From an uncultured Gemmataceae bacterium (GTDB taxonomy: Bacteria; Planctomycetota; Planctomycetia; Gemmatales; Gemmataceae), in NCBI GenBank assembly GCA_963750165.1, contig CAVVPN010000003.1:2848001-2912000 (forward strand): a stretch of 64,000 bases of DNA, given 5' to 3'. The translations under genes and the position numbers were made by a program. Positions 47,586 to 64,000 of the stretch are shown piece by piece. How positions within the stretch are numbered: the first letter of the stretch is position 1; each line of letters begins with the position of its first letter. Under the pieces are notes generated by a model. It ran no database searches. It saw only the letters and a program-made list of their open reading frames with translations, and was not told the origin of the DNA.

Positions 47586-48359
47586 ATGGATGTCTTCTGC
47601 GTCGGCATGTACCGTGCCGGCTCCACGTGGCAGTACGACGTGGCCAGCCAGCTGCTCGAACGCCACCGCGCCGCCCAGCGCCTCGGCTTTGTGACCGGCG
47701 ACCATTACTCGCCCCCATCCGATCCCGCGCCGGCCTGGCGCATCCTCAAAGCCCACGATGCACACCCCGCCTTCTCCGACATGTTGCAACGCCGGCAGGC
47801 GCTGGCCCTGTACTGCTACCGTGACCTGCGCGACGTGTGTTTTTCGCTGATGCACAAGTTCGGCGCCAGCTTCGCGGAGGTGGTCGAACGGCGACGATTG
47901 TTGCACCTGTGCCTGGACAACGACGCCTTCTGGCGAGCGCAGCCGGGCGTCCTGTGCCAGCGCTACGAAGCGCTTACGACGGACCCGGCTGCGGCGGCGG
48001 CGGAGATCGCGGCGCAGCTGGGTGTCGCGCTGGCGGCCGGTGAGGCGACGGCAGTGGCGGAGGAGTATTCGTTGACGGCGAACCAGTGGCGGGCCATCGA
48101 GCTGGCGAATCGGCTGCGCGAGCAGGGCGTGGACCTGGCGGACCCGGCGAACGCGAACCGCTGGGACGCGCGTACGCTGCTGCACTGGAACCACATCCGC
48201 AGCGGCCGCGTCGGTGACTGGCGGCGGCAGGCGACGCGGCGGCAGCTGACCCGGTTGGCGGAGATTTGTGGGCCGTGGCTGATCGCGAACGGCTACGCGC
48301 GCGACGGGCAGTGGGCACAACCAGGCTGGCGGGACCGGCTCAAGCGCTTGCTGGGGTGA
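47586..48359 (+). CDS. sulfotransferase-domain protein
   Basis: GMYRAGSTW (PAPS-binding loop); KAH; YRDLRDVCFS; RYE. Confidence 0.7.
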   Translation: MDVFCVGMYRAGSTWQYDVASQLLERHRAAQRLGFVTGDHYSPPSDPAPAWRILKAHDAHPAFSDMLQRRQALALYCYRDLRDVCFSLMHKFGASFAEVVERRRLLHLCLDNDAFWRAQPGVLCQRYEALTTDPAAAAAEIAAQLGVALAAGEATAVAEEYSLTANQWRAIELANRLREQGVDLADPANANRWDARTLLHWNHIRSGRVGDWRRQATRRQLTRLAEICGPWLIANGYARDGQWAQPGWRDRLKRLLG

Positions 48360-48363
48360 GGAT

Positions 48364-48457
48364 CGGAGGGGATTCACCACAAAGACACAAAGGGCACAAA
48401 GAAAACAATTTTGTCTTCCTTTGTGCCCTTTGTGTCTTTGTGGTGAATCCCCTCCGA
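48364..48457. repeat. REP-like inverted repeat with 9-bp subrepeats
   Basis: GATTCACCACAAAGACACAAAGGGCACAAAG / CTTTGTGCCCTTTGTGTCTTTGTGGTGAATC. Confidence 0.85.
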
Positions 48458-53772: not shown

Positions 53773-54591
53773 GTGACCGCACCACTGGCGAACTGCACCG
53801 CCGCCCTGGCCGAGGGCCGGCAACTGGAAGAACTCGCCGAGTTGCTGGCCCGCGAAGGCGCCACGGTCGTCCGCTGTCCGCTGCTGAGCATCCACGACAG
53901 CCCCGACACCGACACCGTGGTCGCCTGGCTGCGCGACCTGGCCGCCGACCGTTTCGCCTGGGCCGTATGGCTGACCGGCGAGGGCGTGCGACGGCTGCTG
54001 GGCTTCGCGGAGCGCGCCGCCCTGCGCGACGCGGTGCTGGCCGCGCTGGGCCGCGTCCGCTCCGTGACGCGCGGCCCCAAACCGGTGCGGGCGCTCAAGG
54101 AACTCGGCCTGACTCCGACCCTCGTCGCCGCGGCCCCGACCACCGAGGGCGTCATCGCCGCGCTGCGGAGCGAGCCGCTGCACGGCTTGCACGTCGGCGT
54201 ACAACTCTACAGCCCGGACAACCCGCCGCTGCTACAGTTCCTGCGCGACGCCGGCGCGACGCCGCATCCGGTGCTCCCCTACGTCTACGCCCCGGCTGCC
54301 GACGCCGACCGAGTCGGCGACCTGATCGTGCGCCTGGCCGACGGCGGCATCAACCTGCTCGTGTTCACCAGTTCGCCGCAGGTTGATCGACTGCTGGAGG
54401 TGGCGAAGGAACGCTGCCTGGAAGAGCACCTGCGGCAGGGGTTGGAGCGCGTCCGGGTGGCGTCCATTGGGCCGGTGCTGACGGAGCACTTGCGGCAGCT
54501 GGGCGTGCGCGTGGACGTGTGCCCCGAAACGGGCTTCGTGATGAAAAACCTGGTGCAACATATCAAACGACATTGGGAGGAGAGTCATTAG
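53773..54591 (+). CDS. hemD: uroporphyrinogen-III synthase
   Basis: WLTGEGV; RGPKP; PYVYAP; FTSSPQV; SIGPV. Confidence 0.8.
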   Translation: MTAPLANCTAALAEGRQLEELAELLAREGATVVRCPLLSIHDSPDTDTVVAWLRDLAADRFAWAVWLTGEGVRRLLGFAERAALRDAVLAALGRVRSVTRGPKPVRALKELGLTPTLVAAAPTTEGVIAALRSEPLHGLHVGVQLYSPDNPPLLQFLRDAGATPHPVLPYVYAPAADADRVGDLIVRLADGGINLLVFTSSPQVDRLLEVAKERCLEEHLRQGLERVRVASIGPVLTEHLRQLGVRVDVCPETGFVMKNLVQHIKRHWEESH

Positions 54592-54695
54592 TCAATAGTC
54601 ATTAGTCATTAGTTATCCGGGTCGCAGTCTCAAACAAAACTTTCACCCGCGACAGGGATCCGGATAACTAATGACTAATGACTATTGACTGATGA
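54587..54695. repeat. inverted heptamer tandem repeats
   Basis: (CATTAGT)n ... (ACTAATG)n. Confidence 0.8.
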
Positions 54696-54704
54696 CCAAT
54701 CAAA

Positions 54705-56180: not shown

Positions 56181-56263
56181 GCCGAAGTGGCGGAATGGCA
56201 GACGCGCCGGACTCAAAATCCGGTTCACGCAAGTGAGTGTGGGTTCGAGTCCCACCTTCGGCA
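56181..56263 (+). tRNA. tRNA-Leu(CAA), CCA not encoded
   Basis: GCCGAAG/CTTCGGC acceptor stem; CCGGA-CTCAAAA-TCCGG anticodon arm; long variable arm; GTTCGAGTC T-loop. Confidence 0.95.
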
Positions 56264-56377
56264 GTAACGAGTTACGGCAACTGAGCTGGCAAAGAGAAAA
56301 CCGCATTGGTAAGATTCTGGTAAGAATGCGGACGTCACACTGGGCTGACGCTTCGCTCTTACCAGGGGCTTACCAAC

Positions 56378-57724
56378 ATGGCATCCTTGCAACTTCGCGG
56401 CGACAGCTGGCGCGTTCTTTTCAATTACAACGGCAAGCAGCACTCTTTCCCCATCGGCCCCGTCGATTCCGTCGAGGCCGCTTCGTGGAAGGGCAAGGTT
56501 GAACACCTTCTGATGCGGCTCAAGCAGCACCTGCTCGACCTGCCGGTCGGGTGCGACATCGTGACTTTCCTTCAGCACGACGGCAAACCACCGACCGCCC
56601 CGGCGGTCCCGGCCAAGAAGCCGATCACCCTCGGCGAGCTGAGCGACGAATATTTGCAACTGCACGCCAAACTGCTCGACCCCCGCACCGTCGCCGACAT
56701 GCGCGGCCACTGGAAACACCTGGGGCGCCTGCTGCGGCTCACCACCGAGGCCGAGGCGCTGGCGCTGCCCAACCTCCAGAAATACGTCATGGACCGTGTG
56801 GCCGAGGGCGTCGAGCCGGCGACGGCCAAGAAGGAAATCATCACGCTTCGCACCTGCTGGAATTGGGGCGTGCGGATGGGCCTGCTCGCGGGCGCATTCC
56901 CCAACCGGGGCCTGCACTTCCCCAAGGGCACCGAGAAGCCACCGTTCATGACGTTCGCGGAAATCGAGCGCCGTGTTGCCGCCGGCGAACCGGAGTCGCT
57001 ATGGGAGGGCGTGTTCCTGACCCGCGAAGAAATCCAGGAGGTGCTTGACGTGGTGCGGGCCAGAGGCTGCTATCCCTGGATTCACCCGCTCTTCTGCATG
57101 GCCGCGCATACCGGGGCCAGGCGATCTGAGTTGACCGCTGCCCTGGTGACAGACGTGAACCTGCAGGACAAGACGGTGCTGATCCGCGAGAAGAAGCGCC
57201 GTCGCGATGTCCACGAATCCACCCGACGCGTGCCGCTCTCGCCTGCGCTTGCGCTGGTGCTGAAGGACTGGCTGGCAGCGCACCCTGGCGGTGCGCACCT
57301 GTTTTGTCATTCCGGTGAAATCGCCCGCAGCAAGAAGCGCAGCGCGACGACGGGGCACAAGGGCGAACAGGCGAGGGCATCAACACTGGTCGGCCGGACC
57401 AAGGGGGTAAAAAAGCGCGACACGCCGCCGCCCTCGCAGTTAAGCCGCACCGAGGCCAGCGACCATTTTCGACGGACGCTTGCCGGAACGAAGTGGCAGG
57501 TGCTGCCAGGCTACCACTGCTTGCGACACAGCTTCATCTCCAACTGTGCGGCAATGGGCATCGACCAGCGCCTCATCGACTCTTGGGTCGGCCACACCAC
57601 CGAGGAAATGAGGCGGCGGTATCGACACCTGATCCCGTCCGTCGAGCAGCAGGCTATCCGAGTGGTCTTTGGAGAGGCAGCAACCCCTCGCGGCGATAAC
57701 GCTGTAGCTCCTGATGGGAAATAA
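56378..57724 (+). CDS. tyrosine recombinase / integrase
   Basis: Catalytic set: TGARRSE (R), REKK (K), YHCLRH (HxxR), VGHT (H), RRYRH (Y). Confidence 0.93.
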   Translation: MASLQLRGDSWRVLFNYNGKQHSFPIGPVDSVEAASWKGKVEHLLMRLKQHLLDLPVGCDIVTFLQHDGKPPTAPAVPAKKPITLGELSDEYLQLHAKLLDPRTVADMRGHWKHLGRLLRLTTEAEALALPNLQKYVMDRVAEGVEPATAKKEIITLRTCWNWGVRMGLLAGAFPNRGLHFPKGTEKPPFMTFAEIERRVAAGEPESLWEGVFLTREEIQEVLDVVRARGCYPWIHPLFCMAAHTGARRSELTAALVTDVNLQDKTVLIREKKRRRDVHESTRRVPLSPALALVLKDWLAAHPGGAHLFCHSGEIARSKKRSATTGHKGEQARASTLVGRTKGVKKRDTPPPSQLSRTEASDHFRRTLAGTKWQVLPGYHCLRHSFISNCAAMGIDQRLIDSWVGHTTEEMRRRYRHLIPSVEQQAIRVVFGEAATPRGDNAVAPDGK

Positions 57725-57962
57725 CCCAGGCAGGGAATGCGCCTCGGCCCGACATCCGCTTTTCGGCGCGGATGCGGCCGAGGCGGCAGTGTTCCCTGAT
57801 CGTAAATTCCGCCTTGCCGACGAGGCGGGCGAACTCATCGGTGGCATACCATTCCTTGGCCGTCTCCCGCTCTATCAGGCGTGCCAGCATCTCCTCAATG
57901 CGCCCCAGGCTTTCCTCCATCGCTTCAATGCGCCCCATGCTTTCCTCAACGCTAACGCTCAT
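57654..57962 (-). CDS. excisionase-like helix-turn-helix protein
   Basis: WYATDEFARLVGKAEFTIREHCRLGRIRAEK...WVISHQEL; GAGG RBS; convergent with and overlapping the integrase. Confidence 0.8.
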   Translation of the reverse strand: MSVSVEESMGRIEAMEESLGRIEEMLARLIERETAKEWYATDEFARLVGKAEFTIREHCRLGRIRAEKRMSGRGAFPAWVISHQELQRYRREGLLPLQRPLG

Positions 57963-58327
57963 GGCTAAACCCTCTCTGCTTGACTGGCGCTTTCCGTTCG
58001 TGCTTGTTGCTTGACACAAATAAGCTAAGCCTGGAAAACCCTGCCAGAAAAGCCGAGTCTGCGTTCACCGGGAAATTTCCCCCGCCCCGGCGCCGGCACG
58101 TCTCCACAACGTCAACGAATCTGCAACTCGGGGCAGAACAACAATCCGGGGCAGCTCGACAGGGCCGTGACCACCCGAGCGGTACGGTGAAAATTCCCGC
58201 GAATGGCAGGGCTTGCAATTCAAGCGGCCTGGCGACCCTTGGTAAACTCTGGCAGCGCCAGTGTCGGCCCAGGACTGGGCGGGGCCGCAACGTTCATCCC
58301 CACCGCCGAGCCAGCACATCCGAACGT

Positions 58328-58420
58328 TCCAGCGTAGGCAACGTCGTGCTGTTGTGTAGCAGTCAGCGGCCCGAACCAGCGCAGCAACATGCTCGACACC
58401 ACGACGTTGCCTACGCTGGA
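58328..58420. repeat. perfect 21-bp inverted repeat
   Basis: TCCAGCGTAGGCAACGTCGTG (58328-58348) / CACGACGTTGCCTACGCTGGA (58400-58420). Confidence 0.9.
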
Positions 58421-58496
58421 GTTGTCAACTGTGCGGCTTGTGCGGCGCCTGACGGCTTGGCGGCGCTCGGGCCGATGGCAACCAGCTGTCAGCGAC

Positions 58497-58733
58497 CCTG
58501 CATGACACGCATGACACGCATGACACGCATGACACAGATGACGCATGACGCATGACACTTCAGACACTCGATGCTTGTCCCTTTGTGTCCCTTTGTCCCT
58601 TTCGGCTTTAAGTCCTGGACATCAACCACTTGGACGCCAAAGGGACAAAGGGACATGGGCGAGTGTCTGAAGTGTCATGCGTCATGCGTCATCTGTGTCA
58701 TGCGTGTCATGCGTGTCATGCGTGTCATGCAGG
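58497..58733. repeat. perfect 74-bp inverted repeat made of CATGAC(AC) units, with an inner TGTCCCTTT/AAAGGGACA repeat set
   Basis: 58497-58570 is the exact reverse complement of 58660-58733. Confidence 0.95.
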
Positions 58734-58973
58734 ATTAAGCTGAACCTCGCCTACGTCCTCAACACGCACCGCCGGCAGCTGACCGACCAGGACCGCGAGC
58801 GCATCGAGCAGGTCCGCCGCGACCTGGCCCGCGCCCAGGCGTCCGAGCCGCCGCCCCGGGAGCAAGACCCCGAGGGCTACCCGGAATTGCTGGCGGCCTG
58901 GAACGCCGCCAGCATCAACGCCCGTGAGAAGTTCATGGCCGACCGGCTCGCGACCCCACCGGCCGGCTGCTAG
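58734..58973 (+). pseudogene. 5'-truncated fragment of a phage/MGE ParB-like gene
   Basis: Coding-like stretch LNLAYVLNTHRRQLT...LLAAWNAAS starts abruptly at the IR arm with no convincing start or RBS. Confidence 0.45.
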
Positions 58974-59048
58974 CACGCCAGCGTGCGCAGGCGGCCCGCC
59001 AGGTCGTGCGGCGGGTTCAAGGCGGACTGCAGTGGGTGTAAGTCCGGA

Positions 59049-62000
59049 GCGTTCACCCCACGCACGTGGGGAGCAGGAAACCATGTCCGAAAATGTCACC
59101 CCTGGCGCCCGGTTCACCCCCACGCACGTGGGGAGCAGGGCACCGCCTTCGCCAGCGCCTGGTAGGCTTCCGGTTCACCCCCACGCACGTGGGGAGCAGA
59201 ACCAAGGTCACTCACTACTAACGACATAACGCGGTTCACCCCCACGCACGTGGGGAGCAGTCGGCAACAAAGCTGTCGAGCCGGTTGCGGTACGGTTCAC
59301 CCCCACGCACGTGGGAGCAGTCTGCAAGCTTGCGACGCGCTTCTCTGCTGCTCGGTTCACCCCCACGCACGTGGGGAGCAGCCGGCGCTGGAGTGAATTA
59401 TGAAACCGACCGACGGTTCACCCCCACGCACGTGGGGAGCAGCCTGCTGGTCCGCGACCCGGGCCGGCCGCTGTACGGTTCACCCCCACGCACGTGGGGA
59501 GCAGGCTCCCCAGCGAATGCCCCGGCCGCCGCATGACGGTTCACCCCCACGCACGTGGGGAGCAGGAACGACCCGCACGCCAGGGCGAACGCCTTATACG
59601 GTTCACCCCCACGCACGTGGGGAGCAGTGCCGCTGGTAGCCATTCAGGTACGACGTGCCCGGTTCACCCCCACGCACGTGGGGAGCAGGGCCTGGTCACT
59701 CCGGTCACTGCCGCCCTGCTCCGGTTCACCCCCACGCACGTGGGGAGCAGCGGCCACGGCCTGGCCAACGGCAGCGCCGTGTACGGTTCACCCCCACGCA
59801 CGTGGGGAGCAGGAGCAGTTCGAGCTTGCGGTTCATGCCGCACCCCCGGTTCACCCCCACGCACGTGGGGAGCAGTGGAGTTGTTTGAGATCAGGCATGG
59901 GCGTGGCCGGTTCACCCCCACGCACGTGGGGAGCAGGATTGGTGAGGGATTATGCTGGCCGGGCCGTTTCGGTTCACCCCCACGCACGTGGGGAGCAGAC
60001 GCGACGGGTGTGTACGACCGCCGCGTCTGTCGGTTCACCCCCACGCACGTGGGGAGCAGATCGCTCACCGCCAATGCTTATAACCCTTGCCCGGTTCACC
60101 CCCACGCACGTGGGGAGCAGGAGTTGGCTATCAAGCCAGTTGTCGGTTATGCCGGTTCACCCCCACGCACGTGGGGAGCAGGCCGTTTTGCTCGGCGCTA
60201 TTTGCGTGATTGACGGTTCACCCCCACGCACGTGGGGAGCAGCTGGCCGGCGCCATCAAGCTGAGCGTCAACGTCGGTTCACCCCCACGCTCGTGGGGAG
60301 CAGGAAATTGTCCACGTACTCGCGGCCCAGGAAGACGGTTCACCCCCACGCTCGTGGGGAGCAGTGTCGCGTTGCCGCCCGCCTCCGCTACGCGGTCGGT
60401 TCACCCCCACGCTCGTGGGGAGCAGCGGGGAGCCCCCGGGAGGTAGGGCCGTTACGCCGGTTCACCCCCACGCTCGTGGGGAGCAGCCCATGATGTGACT
60501 CCCTCTTGCGTCAATTGCCGGTTCACCCCCACGCTCGTGGGGAGCAGTCGCACCGGAATCCACCTCATAGCCCATTCTCCGGTTCACCCCCACGCTCGTG
60601 GGGAGCAGCTCTAGCTCCGGCTCGTTCAGCCGCACGCTCACGGTTCACCCCCACGCTCGTGGGGAGCAGGAATGAGGTCACTCCTCGGTAGTCGCCTGCA
60701 GTGGTTCACCCCCACGCTCGTGGGGAGCAGGTCGGCGACCGGCTCAGACATGGGCAATGGCTCCGGTTCACCCCCACGCTCGTGGGGAGCAGATCCCGGA
60801 GATGGACGCGTCGGGCGTCGGGGACGGTTCACCCCCACGCTCGTGGGGAGCAGTGCTTCACCTCGCCGACGGCAACGTTGCCCTGCGGTTCACCCCCACG
60901 CTCGTGGGGAGCAGGGCTATGCCAGCGCCGCCAGCGCCGGCTTTGGCGGTTCACCCCCACGCTCGTGGGGAGCAGCTCGTCGTCGTCGGTGTCTGGCCGC
61001 GACAGTTCCGGTTCACCCCCACGCTCGTGGGGAGCAGAAGCCGGCGCACACTCCAGGTTGCACAGGAAACGGTTCACCCCCACGCTCGTGGGGAGCAGGC
61101 CGCACGCCGCTCTGCGTGAATCCCGATCACCGGTTCACCCCCACGCTCGTGGGGAGCAGTGGAGCAGGCCGGCTGCCAGGTGCTGCGGGCACCGGTTCAC
61201 CCCCACGCTCGTGGGGAGCAGGGCAGCAACCCGCCCAACGCCAGCCCGCCCAATCGGTTCACCCCCACGCTCGTGGGGAGCAGGAGCGCGGCGTTGGTGC
61301 GGCCCTGCAGGTACGCGGTTCACCCCCACGCTCGTGGGGAGCAGAGCCAGTGATGACGCCGACGACAGCGCCGAGCACGGTTCACCCCCACGCTCGTGGG
61401 GAGCAGCCGAAGCCGTCCCCGCTCGACTTCGCCGCCGCCGGTTCACCCCCACGCTCGTGGGGAGCAGGCAGTACCGGATGAAGGGTCACGCCGAGGCGGA
61501 CGGTTCACCCCCACGCTCGTGGGGAGCAGGTACGAGCCGCGTTCACGGTCGCCGTGGTCAACCGGTTCACCCCCACGCTCGTGGGGAGCAGAGCGGCCCG
61601 GGATTGAAACCGGCCACGAACAGCGGTTCACCCCCACGCTCGTGGGGAGCAGGACCGCAGGCCCATCAACGTGTACTGAGCCGGCGGTTCACCCCCACGC
61701 TCGTGGGGAGCAGCAGGCACAAGGCAAGCAAATCGCCCAACGTCTCGGTTCACCCCCACGCTCGTGGGGAGCAGTCGGTCTCGGCCACCCAGTTGGGCCC
61801 GTACATCGGTTCACCCCCACGCTCGTGGGGAGCAGGCTCCCGTCCGGCACCAGGAAGCCGGGTGTCGGCGGTTCACCCCCACGCTCGTGGGGAGCAGGCT
61901 ATCGTATGCCAGCGTGCTGCCGCAGCTGACCGGTTCACCCCCACGCTCGTGGGGAGCAGGTAGGTGCTTCGCGGCACACTCACCCCGTTCTCGGTTCACC

Positions 62001-63977
62001 CCCACGCTCGTGGGGAGCAGGACCGGCGTGTGCTACGCCGGCATCTGGTGGACGGTTCACCCCCACGCTCGTGGGGAGCAGCACGGGTATGCCCGGGACT
62101 ACAACACACATTACGGTTCACCCCCACGCTCGTGGGGAGCAGGCGGCCTGGATGATGACGGAGCAGAATGCCGACGGTTCACCCCCACGCTCGTGGGGAG
62201 CAGGCAGAAGGTGGATTTTCCCACTCCCTTGTCACCGGTTCACCCCCACGCTCGTGGGGAGCAGGCCCCGTAGCCTCACAATCCGGCTGACCCGTTCGGT
62301 TCACCCCCACGCTCGTGGGGAGCAGGTCATGATCGGGGCCCCTGGGGTATCCTGATGCGGTTCACCCCCACGCTCGTGGGGAGCAGGCTCGCGGCGACCC
62401 TCAACGCATTTAAGGGAAAGGTTCACCCCCACGCTCGTGGGGAGCAGTTAAATTTCAGGTAGTGGCTTGGCCATACACTTCGGTTCACCCCCACGCTCGT
62501 GGGGAGCAGGGGCGTTACCGCTGCCGCTGCCCCAGCGCCTGCGGTTCACCCCCACGCTCGTGGGGAGCAGCGCCGGGCGGCGTAAGCGGCCGCGCCGGCG
62601 TCCGGTTCACCCCCACGCTCGTGGGGAGCAGATCATTGGCAGCCCACTTTCTTCGAGGTAGTCCGGTTCACCCCCACGCTCGTGGGGAGCAGTTGGTCAC
62701 CACGACGCGGGCGCCAGCCGGGAACGGTTCACCCCCACGCTCGTGGGGAGCAGCTGCTTGTTGCAGGTTCCGGCCCCGGCCACGACGGTTCACCCCCACG
62801 CTCGTGGGGAGCAGTGGGAGGTGTACTGCCGGCAGCGCTGGCAGTTCGGTTCACCCCCACGCTCGTGGGGAGCAGCGGCCTGAAGGGCGGGAATGGTATC
62901 TTCCACCCGGTTCACCCCCACGCTCGTGGGGAGCAGCCGAACGCTAGCGCACGCAAGCAAAGCTACGCCGGTTCACCCCCACGCTCGTGGGGAGCAGAAG
63001 TAGCTAACCCGCACCGACATGAGGCACCTCGGTTCACCCCCACGCTCGTGGGGAGCAGGACCAGGCTGCCGCAAATCATCAGGCGATGGCCGGTTCACCC
63101 CCACGCTCGTGGGGAGCAGGTCTGGAAGGTGGTGGTGGTGGACACCACCAACGGTTCACCCCCACGCTCGTGGGGAGCAGGAAAATCACAAGGTCGGCTC
63201 AGGGCTGTCTGGCGGTTCACCCCCACGCTCGTGGGGAGCAGTTCAGAACCGAGAGAAAATCGCTAGTACACTCCGGTTCACCCCCACGCTCGTGGGGAGC
63301 AGGAACGGAAACATCCTGAATGAAGACGTTCCCGCCGGTTCACCCCCACGCTCGTGGGGAGCAGTTCCTCCTCGCCGGCCATCCACACCACCGCGCCGGT
63401 TCACCCCCACGCTCGTGGGGAGCAGGACCAAAGCGCTGCAAATCATCAGGCGATGGCCGGTTCACCCCCACGCTCGTGGGGAGCAGGACCAAAGCGCTGC
63501 AAATCATCAGGCGATGGCCGGTTCACCCCCACGCTCGTGGGGAGCAGTCCCGTCGATGCCATGCACCCGGCTGATCCGCACGGTTCACCCCCACGCTCGT
63601 GGGGAGCAGCACTGGCCTACCGCATCGGCAGTCGGGCCGAGCGGTTCACCCCCACGCTCGTGGGGAGCAGCGATCCTGACGGTGCTCCAGGTTGACCGTG
63701 ATCGGTTCACCCCCACGCTCGTGGGGAGCAGGCCGGCCAACGTCCGTGTTCACGACAATTCCTCCGGTTCACCCCCACGCTCGTGGGGAGCAGGCAGCTG
63801 ACCTGCGCCACCGCGGGCGCCACCTCCGGTTCACCCCCACGCTCGTGGGGAGCAGTCGGCCCCGCGCCTGTTCCGCGCCGCCTCCTCCGGTTCACCCCCA
63901 CGCTCGTGGGGAGCAGGTCGCGGTCATCCTGAAAATGGAGGCGTCCACCGGTTCACCCCCACGCTCGTGGGGAGCAG
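59049..63977 (-). CRISPR. type I-E-like CRISPR array, 81 repeats visible, may continue past the window
   Basis: 29-bp repeat CGGTTCACCCCCACGC(A/T)CGTGGGGAGCAG with 32-34-bp mostly unique spacers. The reverse complement ends in ...GAACCG like E. coli I-E repeats. A degenerate repeat at 59049 marks the trailer end. Confidence 0.98.
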
Positions 63978-64000
63978 GGCCGTGGGGGAACCCTTGATGC

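Follow-up and report, generated by a model that had tools for sequence, protein, structure and literature searches.

A tRNA-Leu(CAA) Island With a Type I-E CRISPR-Cas Locus and a Guide-Matched 68-aa Open Reading Frame in an Uncultured Gemmataceae Bacterium

Introduction

An integrated island that carries a whole CRISPR-Cas system is a known arrangement. GI-24 and VPI-6 of Vibrio cholerae, non-self-mobilising islands of 17–29 kb, are described in the available part of the source as combining a tyrosine integrase and the attachment sites attL and attR with a complete type I CRISPR-cas locus, and excision was assayed for GI-24, which is 17 kb long and of type I-E (PMC6360697). Here, a 64,000-nt stretch (the window) of contig C3 (CAVVPN010000003.1) from an uncultured Gemmataceae bacterium was analyzed, in which a tRNA-Leu(CAA) gene and an integrase gene are followed by a CRISPR array that runs on beyond the window. 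Positions above 64000 continue along contig C3, on which any position equals the coordinate given here plus 2,848,000; the assembly is 93% complete and the genome comprises about 9.6 Mb.

Guides encoded within cas loci are the second point of comparison. As far as the available parts of the sources go, type I-E CreR mini-arrays consist of a pair of degenerate repeats lying between cas3 and cas8e (10.1101/2023.03.10.532045; PMC10120712), CreP of the type I-F CrePA system is a 103-aa KilAC protein (10.1101/2024.01.05.574328), and the proteins of type I-C CRISIS loci comprise Sir2, PHP-ATPase, TIR, TM and MBL proteins as well as Tudigong hypotheticals (10.1101/2024.12.27.630466). The locus presented here adds a planctomycete example to the known CRISPR-carrying islands and appears to show the conversion of a satellite into a CRISPR island at base resolution. 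More weight attaches to a regulatory module inside it, in which one small protein family would be under CRISPR RNA (crRNA)-like control in two subtypes with different protospacer adjacent motifs (PAMs), with covariation of guide and target across 12 loci; this covariation permits a specific and cheap test for the existence of a new safeguard toxin or, alternatively, of a new Cas regulator.

A CRISPR-Carrying Island in tRNA-Leu(CAA)

The island is bounded on one side by the tRNA-Leu(CAA) gene (56181..56265, plus strand; called by ARAGORN at 56181-56263), which forms attL, and on the other by attR (76183-76242, plus strand), a copy of the 3' 60 bp of that gene (56206-56265, plus strand) which starts at the anticodon stem, includes the whole remainder of the gene as far as its 3' end and lies 19,977 bp away on the same replicon. 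Both copies agree at 55 of 60 positions, every difference falling in the variable arm, and they were the sole matches in an Rfam search. In the available part of its description, Islander defines islands by an intact tRNA gene and its displaced fragment in direct repeat with a tyrosine integrase between them (PMC4383910); here, the direct tRNA repeat on one replicon encloses the gene of a 448-aa tyrosine integrase (56378..57724, plus strand; Pfam Phage_integrase, E 1e-18; PHROG 1, E 1e-41), an open frame in which the catalytic motifs (R248, H380-x-x-R383, H406 and Y415) are present. The convergent gene for a 102-aa helix-turn-helix (HTH) protein (57654..57962, minus strand) probably encodes the excisionase, judging by its position and its likeness to HTH_17 (E 0.0025, under the curated cut-off); HTH paralogues adjoin all three paralogous integrases on contig C1. 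Moreover, two inverted tandem motifs of the form TGGTAAG-N4-TGGTAAG lie between the tRNA and integrase genes (56307..56375), and a motif scan found a further tandem copy on the attR side (76038-76055, plus strand). The tandem TGGTAAR motif has five matches in 9.6 Mb, three just inside the island ends and two beside paralogous integrases. Out of 19 non-self loci, 11 in other genomes were examined for a looser form, and 6 of these 11 have it upstream of their integrase; these motifs are probably the arm-type sites of the integrase. The GC content of the non-array island DNA is 62.8% vs 66.0-66.5% in the flanks.

Within these ends, a type I-E array on the minus strand occupies 59049..64000 and continues to 64965; it has 97 repeats and 96 spacers in total, and 81 of the repeats fall within the window. 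Past its leader follow, in this order, cas2, cas1, cas6e, cas5, cas7, cas11 and cas8e (65060-70922, minus strand), all open frames above the NCBIfam cut-offs, and further on a twice frameshifted cas3 (71419-74146, minus strand), a gene encoding an HTH-WYL-WCX protein (74177-75157, minus strand) and a 109-aa open reading frame (ORF) without family (75288-75617, minus strand). All eight I-E genes and the WYL gene thus sit within the att pair; the seven genes and the repeat and spacer sizes are those of type I-E, cas3 being the one component that is not intact. Neither a gene of a primase/replicase module nor, among the coding ORFs that the att pair encloses, all of which were accounted for, any relaxase, conjugation, Rep or capsid gene was found. 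We consider it likely that this is an island of about 20 kb in tRNA-Leu(CAA), not self-transmissible, with an integrase, a probable excisionase, att sites and a complete I-E locus in cis, and that it descends from a primase/DUF3987 satellite.

The initial annotation of the window had named the tRNA-Leu gene, the intact integrase, the convergent HTH gene, hairpins, a gene fragment and at least 81 repeats, each of which was recovered, and had read them as an integrative element without primase, relaxase or capsid genes that carries CRISPR immunity as cargo; the att duplicate and the array and cas locus between the att sites bear this out. The leader, cas3 and cas1-2 and the copy of the tRNA 3' end, which were to be sought beyond the window, are all present there. 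Its remark that no cas gene was in view holds for the window itself, but the cas genes start about 1.1 kb past the edge, and at some 20 kb the element is not the stripped-down, minimal one supposed there. The same annotation had raised the possibility of a mobile memory cassette relying on Cas and Rep proteins supplied in trans. Rep and transfer genes are indeed not found inside the att pair, and with cas3 broken any interference would need a nuclease from elsewhere; nevertheless, Cascade, cas6e, cas1 and cas2 are intact in cis, which refutes the proposal for Cascade and adaptation, and the only other cas1 of the genome is of type I-C and the only other cas locus a partial type I-C one, a second cas3 not being detected by tblastn with the N-terminal part in the 93%-complete assembly. 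With the I-E set encoded on the island, a supply in trans was rejected and retains next to no probability.

By gene content, GI-24 with its integrase, att sites and complete I-E cas genes is the closest precedent, as far as the available part of its description allows (PMC6360697). The present island differs from GI-24 and VPI-6, as described there, in its tRNA-Leu(CAA) site, its planctomycete host, the satellite debris adjoining the array and the frameshifted cas3.

Probable Satellite Remnants Beside the Array

The DNA between the HTH gene and the array contains pieces related to other mobile elements of the same genome. A remnant at 58124..58225 (plus strand) shares 68% identity with the upstream region of an HTH gene carried by a mobile element on contig C11 (~2.248 Mb), and this HTH gene belongs to the same family as a satellite HTH gene of which the island keeps the truncated 3' part (58734..59054, plus strand). 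Within the latter, positions 58795-59054 share 89% identity with the 3' end of the HTH gene in a satellite-like element on contig C6, the genes of which encode an integrase, a ParB-like protein, Prim-Pol, DUF3987 and a terminase-small-like protein. The homology enters the terminal repeat of the array and stops at a common GTTC, a 4-nt microhomology, and this suggests loss of the replication module through a single deletion or illegitimate join. The ancestor would have been a primase/DUF3987-type satellite, the replication genes of which were lost when satellite DNA joined the last repeat of the array. Satellites with Prim-Pol and DUF3987, which we take to be PICI-like, resemble the island in their integrase-excisionase end, and the island DNA holds remnants homologous to such elements of this genome, whereas replication and packaging genes are lacking from the island.

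Between the two remnants lie an imperfect inverted repeat with 50-nt arms of 74% identity (58303..58445) and a perfect 74-nt inverted repeat (58497..58733; arms 58497-58570 and 58660-58733) built of 9-mer units around an inner imperfect palindrome, and the fold of this region reaches z = -21 against shuffles. The 9-mer unit clusters nowhere else in the genome. Of 251 family genomes, 2 contain these inverted units, in one instance about 0.75 kb behind a DUF3987 gene. These observations lend modest support to the large hairpin being a remnant of an iteron-type satellite origin; against it counts that 50 loci of the genome carry perfect palindromes with arms of at least 40 nt, so that the hairpin need not be specific to the element. 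The earlier suggestion that the element keeps cis sites of its own remains plausible for the inverted repeats as satellite origin-type sequences, but the region resembles deletion debris and not a streamlined design.

Some related arrangements were seen in passing. Next to the C6 element (L005:3448-18279) lies a short CRISPR array, its trailer facing the element, with a partial type I-C locus (cas8c fragment, cas7, cas4, cas1 and cas2), and the order there, integrase, satellite genes, trailer, leader and cas2, is that of the island; contig C6 ends inside the integrase. In another genome (L174-L175, G388:C12), about 10 kb separate a tRNA-Thr gene with a different integrase from the trailer end of a further I-E array with its cas locus, and this may be a second CRISPR island. 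Long intergenic palindromes of short tandem units are common in the present genome, for example at window positions 54581-54700 and 48350-48450.

Predicted Mobility of the Island

We propose that the integrase, together with the excisionase, would excise and reintegrate the island, which would neither replicate nor transfer alone. The start of the att repeat in the anticodon stem speaks for the anticodon loop as a crossover subsite. The att copies do not differ in either of the two crossover candidates, which are the anticodon block and the T-arm block. A reading with the same anatomy that differs in present mobility only would have the island fixed, as a dead satellite with att-like ends around a domesticated, decaying CRISPR locus. 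The lost replication module with its deletion debris, the divergence of the att copies and the double frameshift of cas3 would fit such decay; by contrast, the integrase retains its frame and catalytic motifs, the crossover candidates have stayed identical and arm motifs persist at both ends, so that we regard fixation as rather unlikely.

Three observations tell against the interpretation as a mobile island. An empty site was not seen, the flanking genes coming within 1.5 kb in none of 29 tRNA loci and none of 29 mug loci, all from other genera, in a sample that held no genome of the same genus; the five differences in 60 att positions may indicate an old element; and a second island combining such an integrase with I-E cas genes was not found. 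The same tRNA followed by a homologous integrase occurs in 2 of 29 other genomes, and peptide patterns retrieved no close relatives of the integrase from the genome-contig or viral-contig collections. Speaking against the anticodon loop as crossover subsite, the variable arm of the intact tRNA is shared with six relatives and that of attR with none of 27 loci, a count biased by the choice of loci for their likeness to the intact tRNA.

Besides the gene at attL, a second tRNA-Leu(CAA) gene stands in an array of 16 tRNA genes on contig C10 (88.5-90.1 kb). Among the paralogous integrases, one on contig C1 (L006, ~284-301 kb) lies with its excisionase at tRNA-Leu(GAG), together with a coupling-protein gene and ParB, and this element is a possible mobilisation helper; a second full tRNA-Leu(GAG) gene, 93% identical, is found 131 kb away. 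Another paralogous integrase on C1 is adjoined by genes for a patatin and a DncV-like cyclase, a CBASS-like pair (L007:16124-18385). A 12-kb island in tRNA-Phe (L181, C11 778.9-791.3 kb) contains DUF3987, an integrase and EAD1-trypsin cargo, and its att copy likewise begins at tRNA position 26.

A Guide and Its Promoter Target Between cas3 and cas8e

A compact module is located between cas3 and cas8e, all on the minus strand: a degenerate mini-array with a CreA/CreR-like guide and a 35-nt spacer (71008-71099), an ORF of 68 aa with a predicted three-helix, HTH-like product that belongs to no family (71129-71335), a sigma-70-like promoter (71366-71394), which is the sole match in 600 nt where 0.2 are expected, and a guide target with an AAA PAM (71403-71420). 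When positions 6 and 12 are ignored, guide positions 1-15 have one other match in 9.6 Mb, namely this target, 8 nt upstream of the -35 box and with its AAA PAM. The arrangement, a degenerate two-repeat unit with a spacer matching a PAM-flanked promoter site in the cas locus, is that by which CreR and CreA guides are recognised. We suggest that Cas6e and Cascade take up the mini-array's short guide and attach immediately upstream of the -35 box, and that bound Cascade would repress the 68-aa ORF and probably also the cascade operon behind it.

The guide-target relation was assessed in 12 cas-linked loci, five of type I-E including this one and seven of type I-C, against 1000 base shuffles each and against non-cognate regions. 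A PAM-flanked target was found upstream of the ORF in all 12 loci, with AAN in the five I-E and TTC in the seven I-C loci, and guide-target mismatches fell mostly at positions 6 and 12. In 11 loci the match exceeded 1000 of 1000 shuffles and every non-cognate region of the own subtype. Since the spacers differ in all 12 loci, guide and target co-vary. The mini-array follows the ORF in I-E loci and precedes it on the opposite strand in I-C loci. Weighing against guide control are the I-C locus L039, which does not exceed shuffles (P = 0.21), and L033, which carries a seed mismatch at position 3. Taken together, silencing of the promoter of the 68-aa ORF by Cascade is probable on the strength of these sequence comparisons.

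As described in the available parts of the respective sources, I-E CreR mini-arrays share with this module the cas3-cas8e placement and a spacer that partly matches a PAM-flanked promoter site, whereas the island has a conserved ORF between target and mini-array, and its PAM is AAA with AAG or AAT in relatives (10.1101/2023.03.10.532045; PMC10120712). CrePA and CRISIS loci also have, in the interval from cas3 to the Cascade genes, a gene that is not a cas gene, with the target of a guide immediately upstream of its -35 box (10.1101/2024.01.05.574328; 10.1101/2024.12.27.630466). Unlike CreP, the 68-aa ORF has no KilAC match and its family spans I-E and I-C; unlike the CRISIS proteins, none of which is described in the available part as a lone protein of ~70 aa with an HTH, it is just that. 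Within reach of the literature searched, a guide-controlled small protein common to I-E and I-C appears to be new. Nothing specific to the family was found there; the supplementary locus tables of CreR and CRISIS, outside the search, may list these mini-arrays, and four planctomycete terms are absent from two supplements of PMC10120712.

Possible Roles of the 68-aa Protein

Homologues of the ORF were detected in 20 of 300 genomes of the class, and in eight of these 20 (one I-E, seven I-C) it directly follows cas3; cas3 and cas5 were confirmed by Pfam for one I-C locus, the other loci being judged by translation. A metagenome scan gave six loci, three of them with the order cas3, ORF, mini-array and cas8e, one with a full-length ORF outside any cas context and two weak partial ones, and a scan of genome contigs with the ORF alignment gave one weak partial locus. 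There are 25 other proteins of 57-85% identity, mostly 68 aa long, and a profile search collected 602 representatives. The family was not found in Pfam (to E 1), NCBIfam, PADLOC or PHROGs (to E 0.01), Foldseek with the model gave nothing at E <= 0.001, and the Atlas matches are unnamed clusters with recognition below threshold. The predicted structure consists of three helices (predicted local distance difference test, pLDDT, of 78), and its likeness to HTH, winged-helix and Myb-like domains (VIA, Z at most 7.1) concerns a common arrangement. Many of the 30 longer homologues scanned join the domain to AAA ATPases, hydrolases, lyases, glyoxalases, Mrr_N or DUF3644, and in five loci (L034, L035, L037, L040 and L048) it forms a separate gene right after Fic-family genes (Fic confirmed by Pfam in three of the five).

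Two roles can be set against each other. In the first, the 68-aa protein would be a non-toxic DNA-binding regulator or accessory protein heading the cascade operon, and the guide would serve plain CreR autorepression. The modelled HTH/Myb-like fold with a basic C-terminal motif agrees with this, as does the published occurrence of I-E CreR without a toxin; moreover, where the gene downstream of the ORF was visible, it was cas8e or cas5, with the ORF as the leading gene, and the promoter could therefore serve the cas operon. However, eight other I-E loci examined lack the ORF, which implies that Cascade does not need the protein, and recurrence in I-E and I-C is a better fit to mobile cargo than to a core part. 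On balance we hold this role to be evenly poised between right and wrong. In the second, the protein would be a CRISPR-repressed toxin or abortive-infection effector, similar to CreP and CRISIS, which addicts the host to Cascade and stabilises the island. Position and guide geometry, with the target just upstream of -35 and mismatches at 6 and 12, are as in those systems, the ORF is retained in two subtypes with unrelated guides, and the sole broken cas gene is cas3, which is dispensable for repression. Against toxicity, which would be an analogy, it counts that no toxin or defence family matches the ORF, that its fold is a common HTH-like bundle and that the domain recurs in fusions with hydrolases, lyases, glyoxalases and AAA ATPases; we give this role somewhat less than an even chance. 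A toxin would explain the upkeep of an island with a broken cas3. We tentatively suggest, while doubting it more than we believe it, that this HTH-like family represents a toxin or abortive-infection effector not described before, repressed by CRISPR in I-E and I-C loci with separately evolved guides, making an island without replication genes and with a broken cas3 addictive and letting it persist via Cascade silencing rather than immunity.

The cas3 Frameshifts

Compared with an intact homologue, cas3 is spread over three frames by frameshifts near 72570 and 72130. In a control of 45 genes of the assembly, the 44 others (~45 kb aligned) hold two frameshifts vs two in cas3, and this low background indicates that the cas3 frameshifts are probably real, as does the intact state of the remaining seven cas genes. 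If so, the locus may acquire spacers and silence DNA without degrading it. That the frameshifts arose in assembly, in which case the system would be fully active, deserves notice, if with considerable doubt: both fall in G/C-rich runs, two of the 97 array repeats miss one homopolymer base, and split genes also occur in the C6 satellite. Separately, self-targeting was rejected as the cause of cas3 loss, none of the 96 spacers having a genomic match under four mismatches.

Composition of the Array

Mapping of spacers, a check suggested with the initial annotation, was unsuccessful: the 80 spacers of the in-window array, out of 96, had no match in the phage collection, and no clear protospacer emerged from 251 family genomes, two candidates per genome being scored. 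Repeats of 29 nt alternate with spacers of about 32 nt (31-34), except for the leader-proximal spacer of 41 nt (64895-64935). The spacer at 64039-64070 translates to a motif that we presume to be one of phage HNH endonucleases. An identical pair of neighbouring spacers occurs, and 20 nt of their sequence recur in a third (window 63426-63518 and 63059-63090). Additionally, one repeat position changes blockwise, separating the 20 trailer-side repeats (59049-60242) from the 77 leader-side ones (60275-64965).

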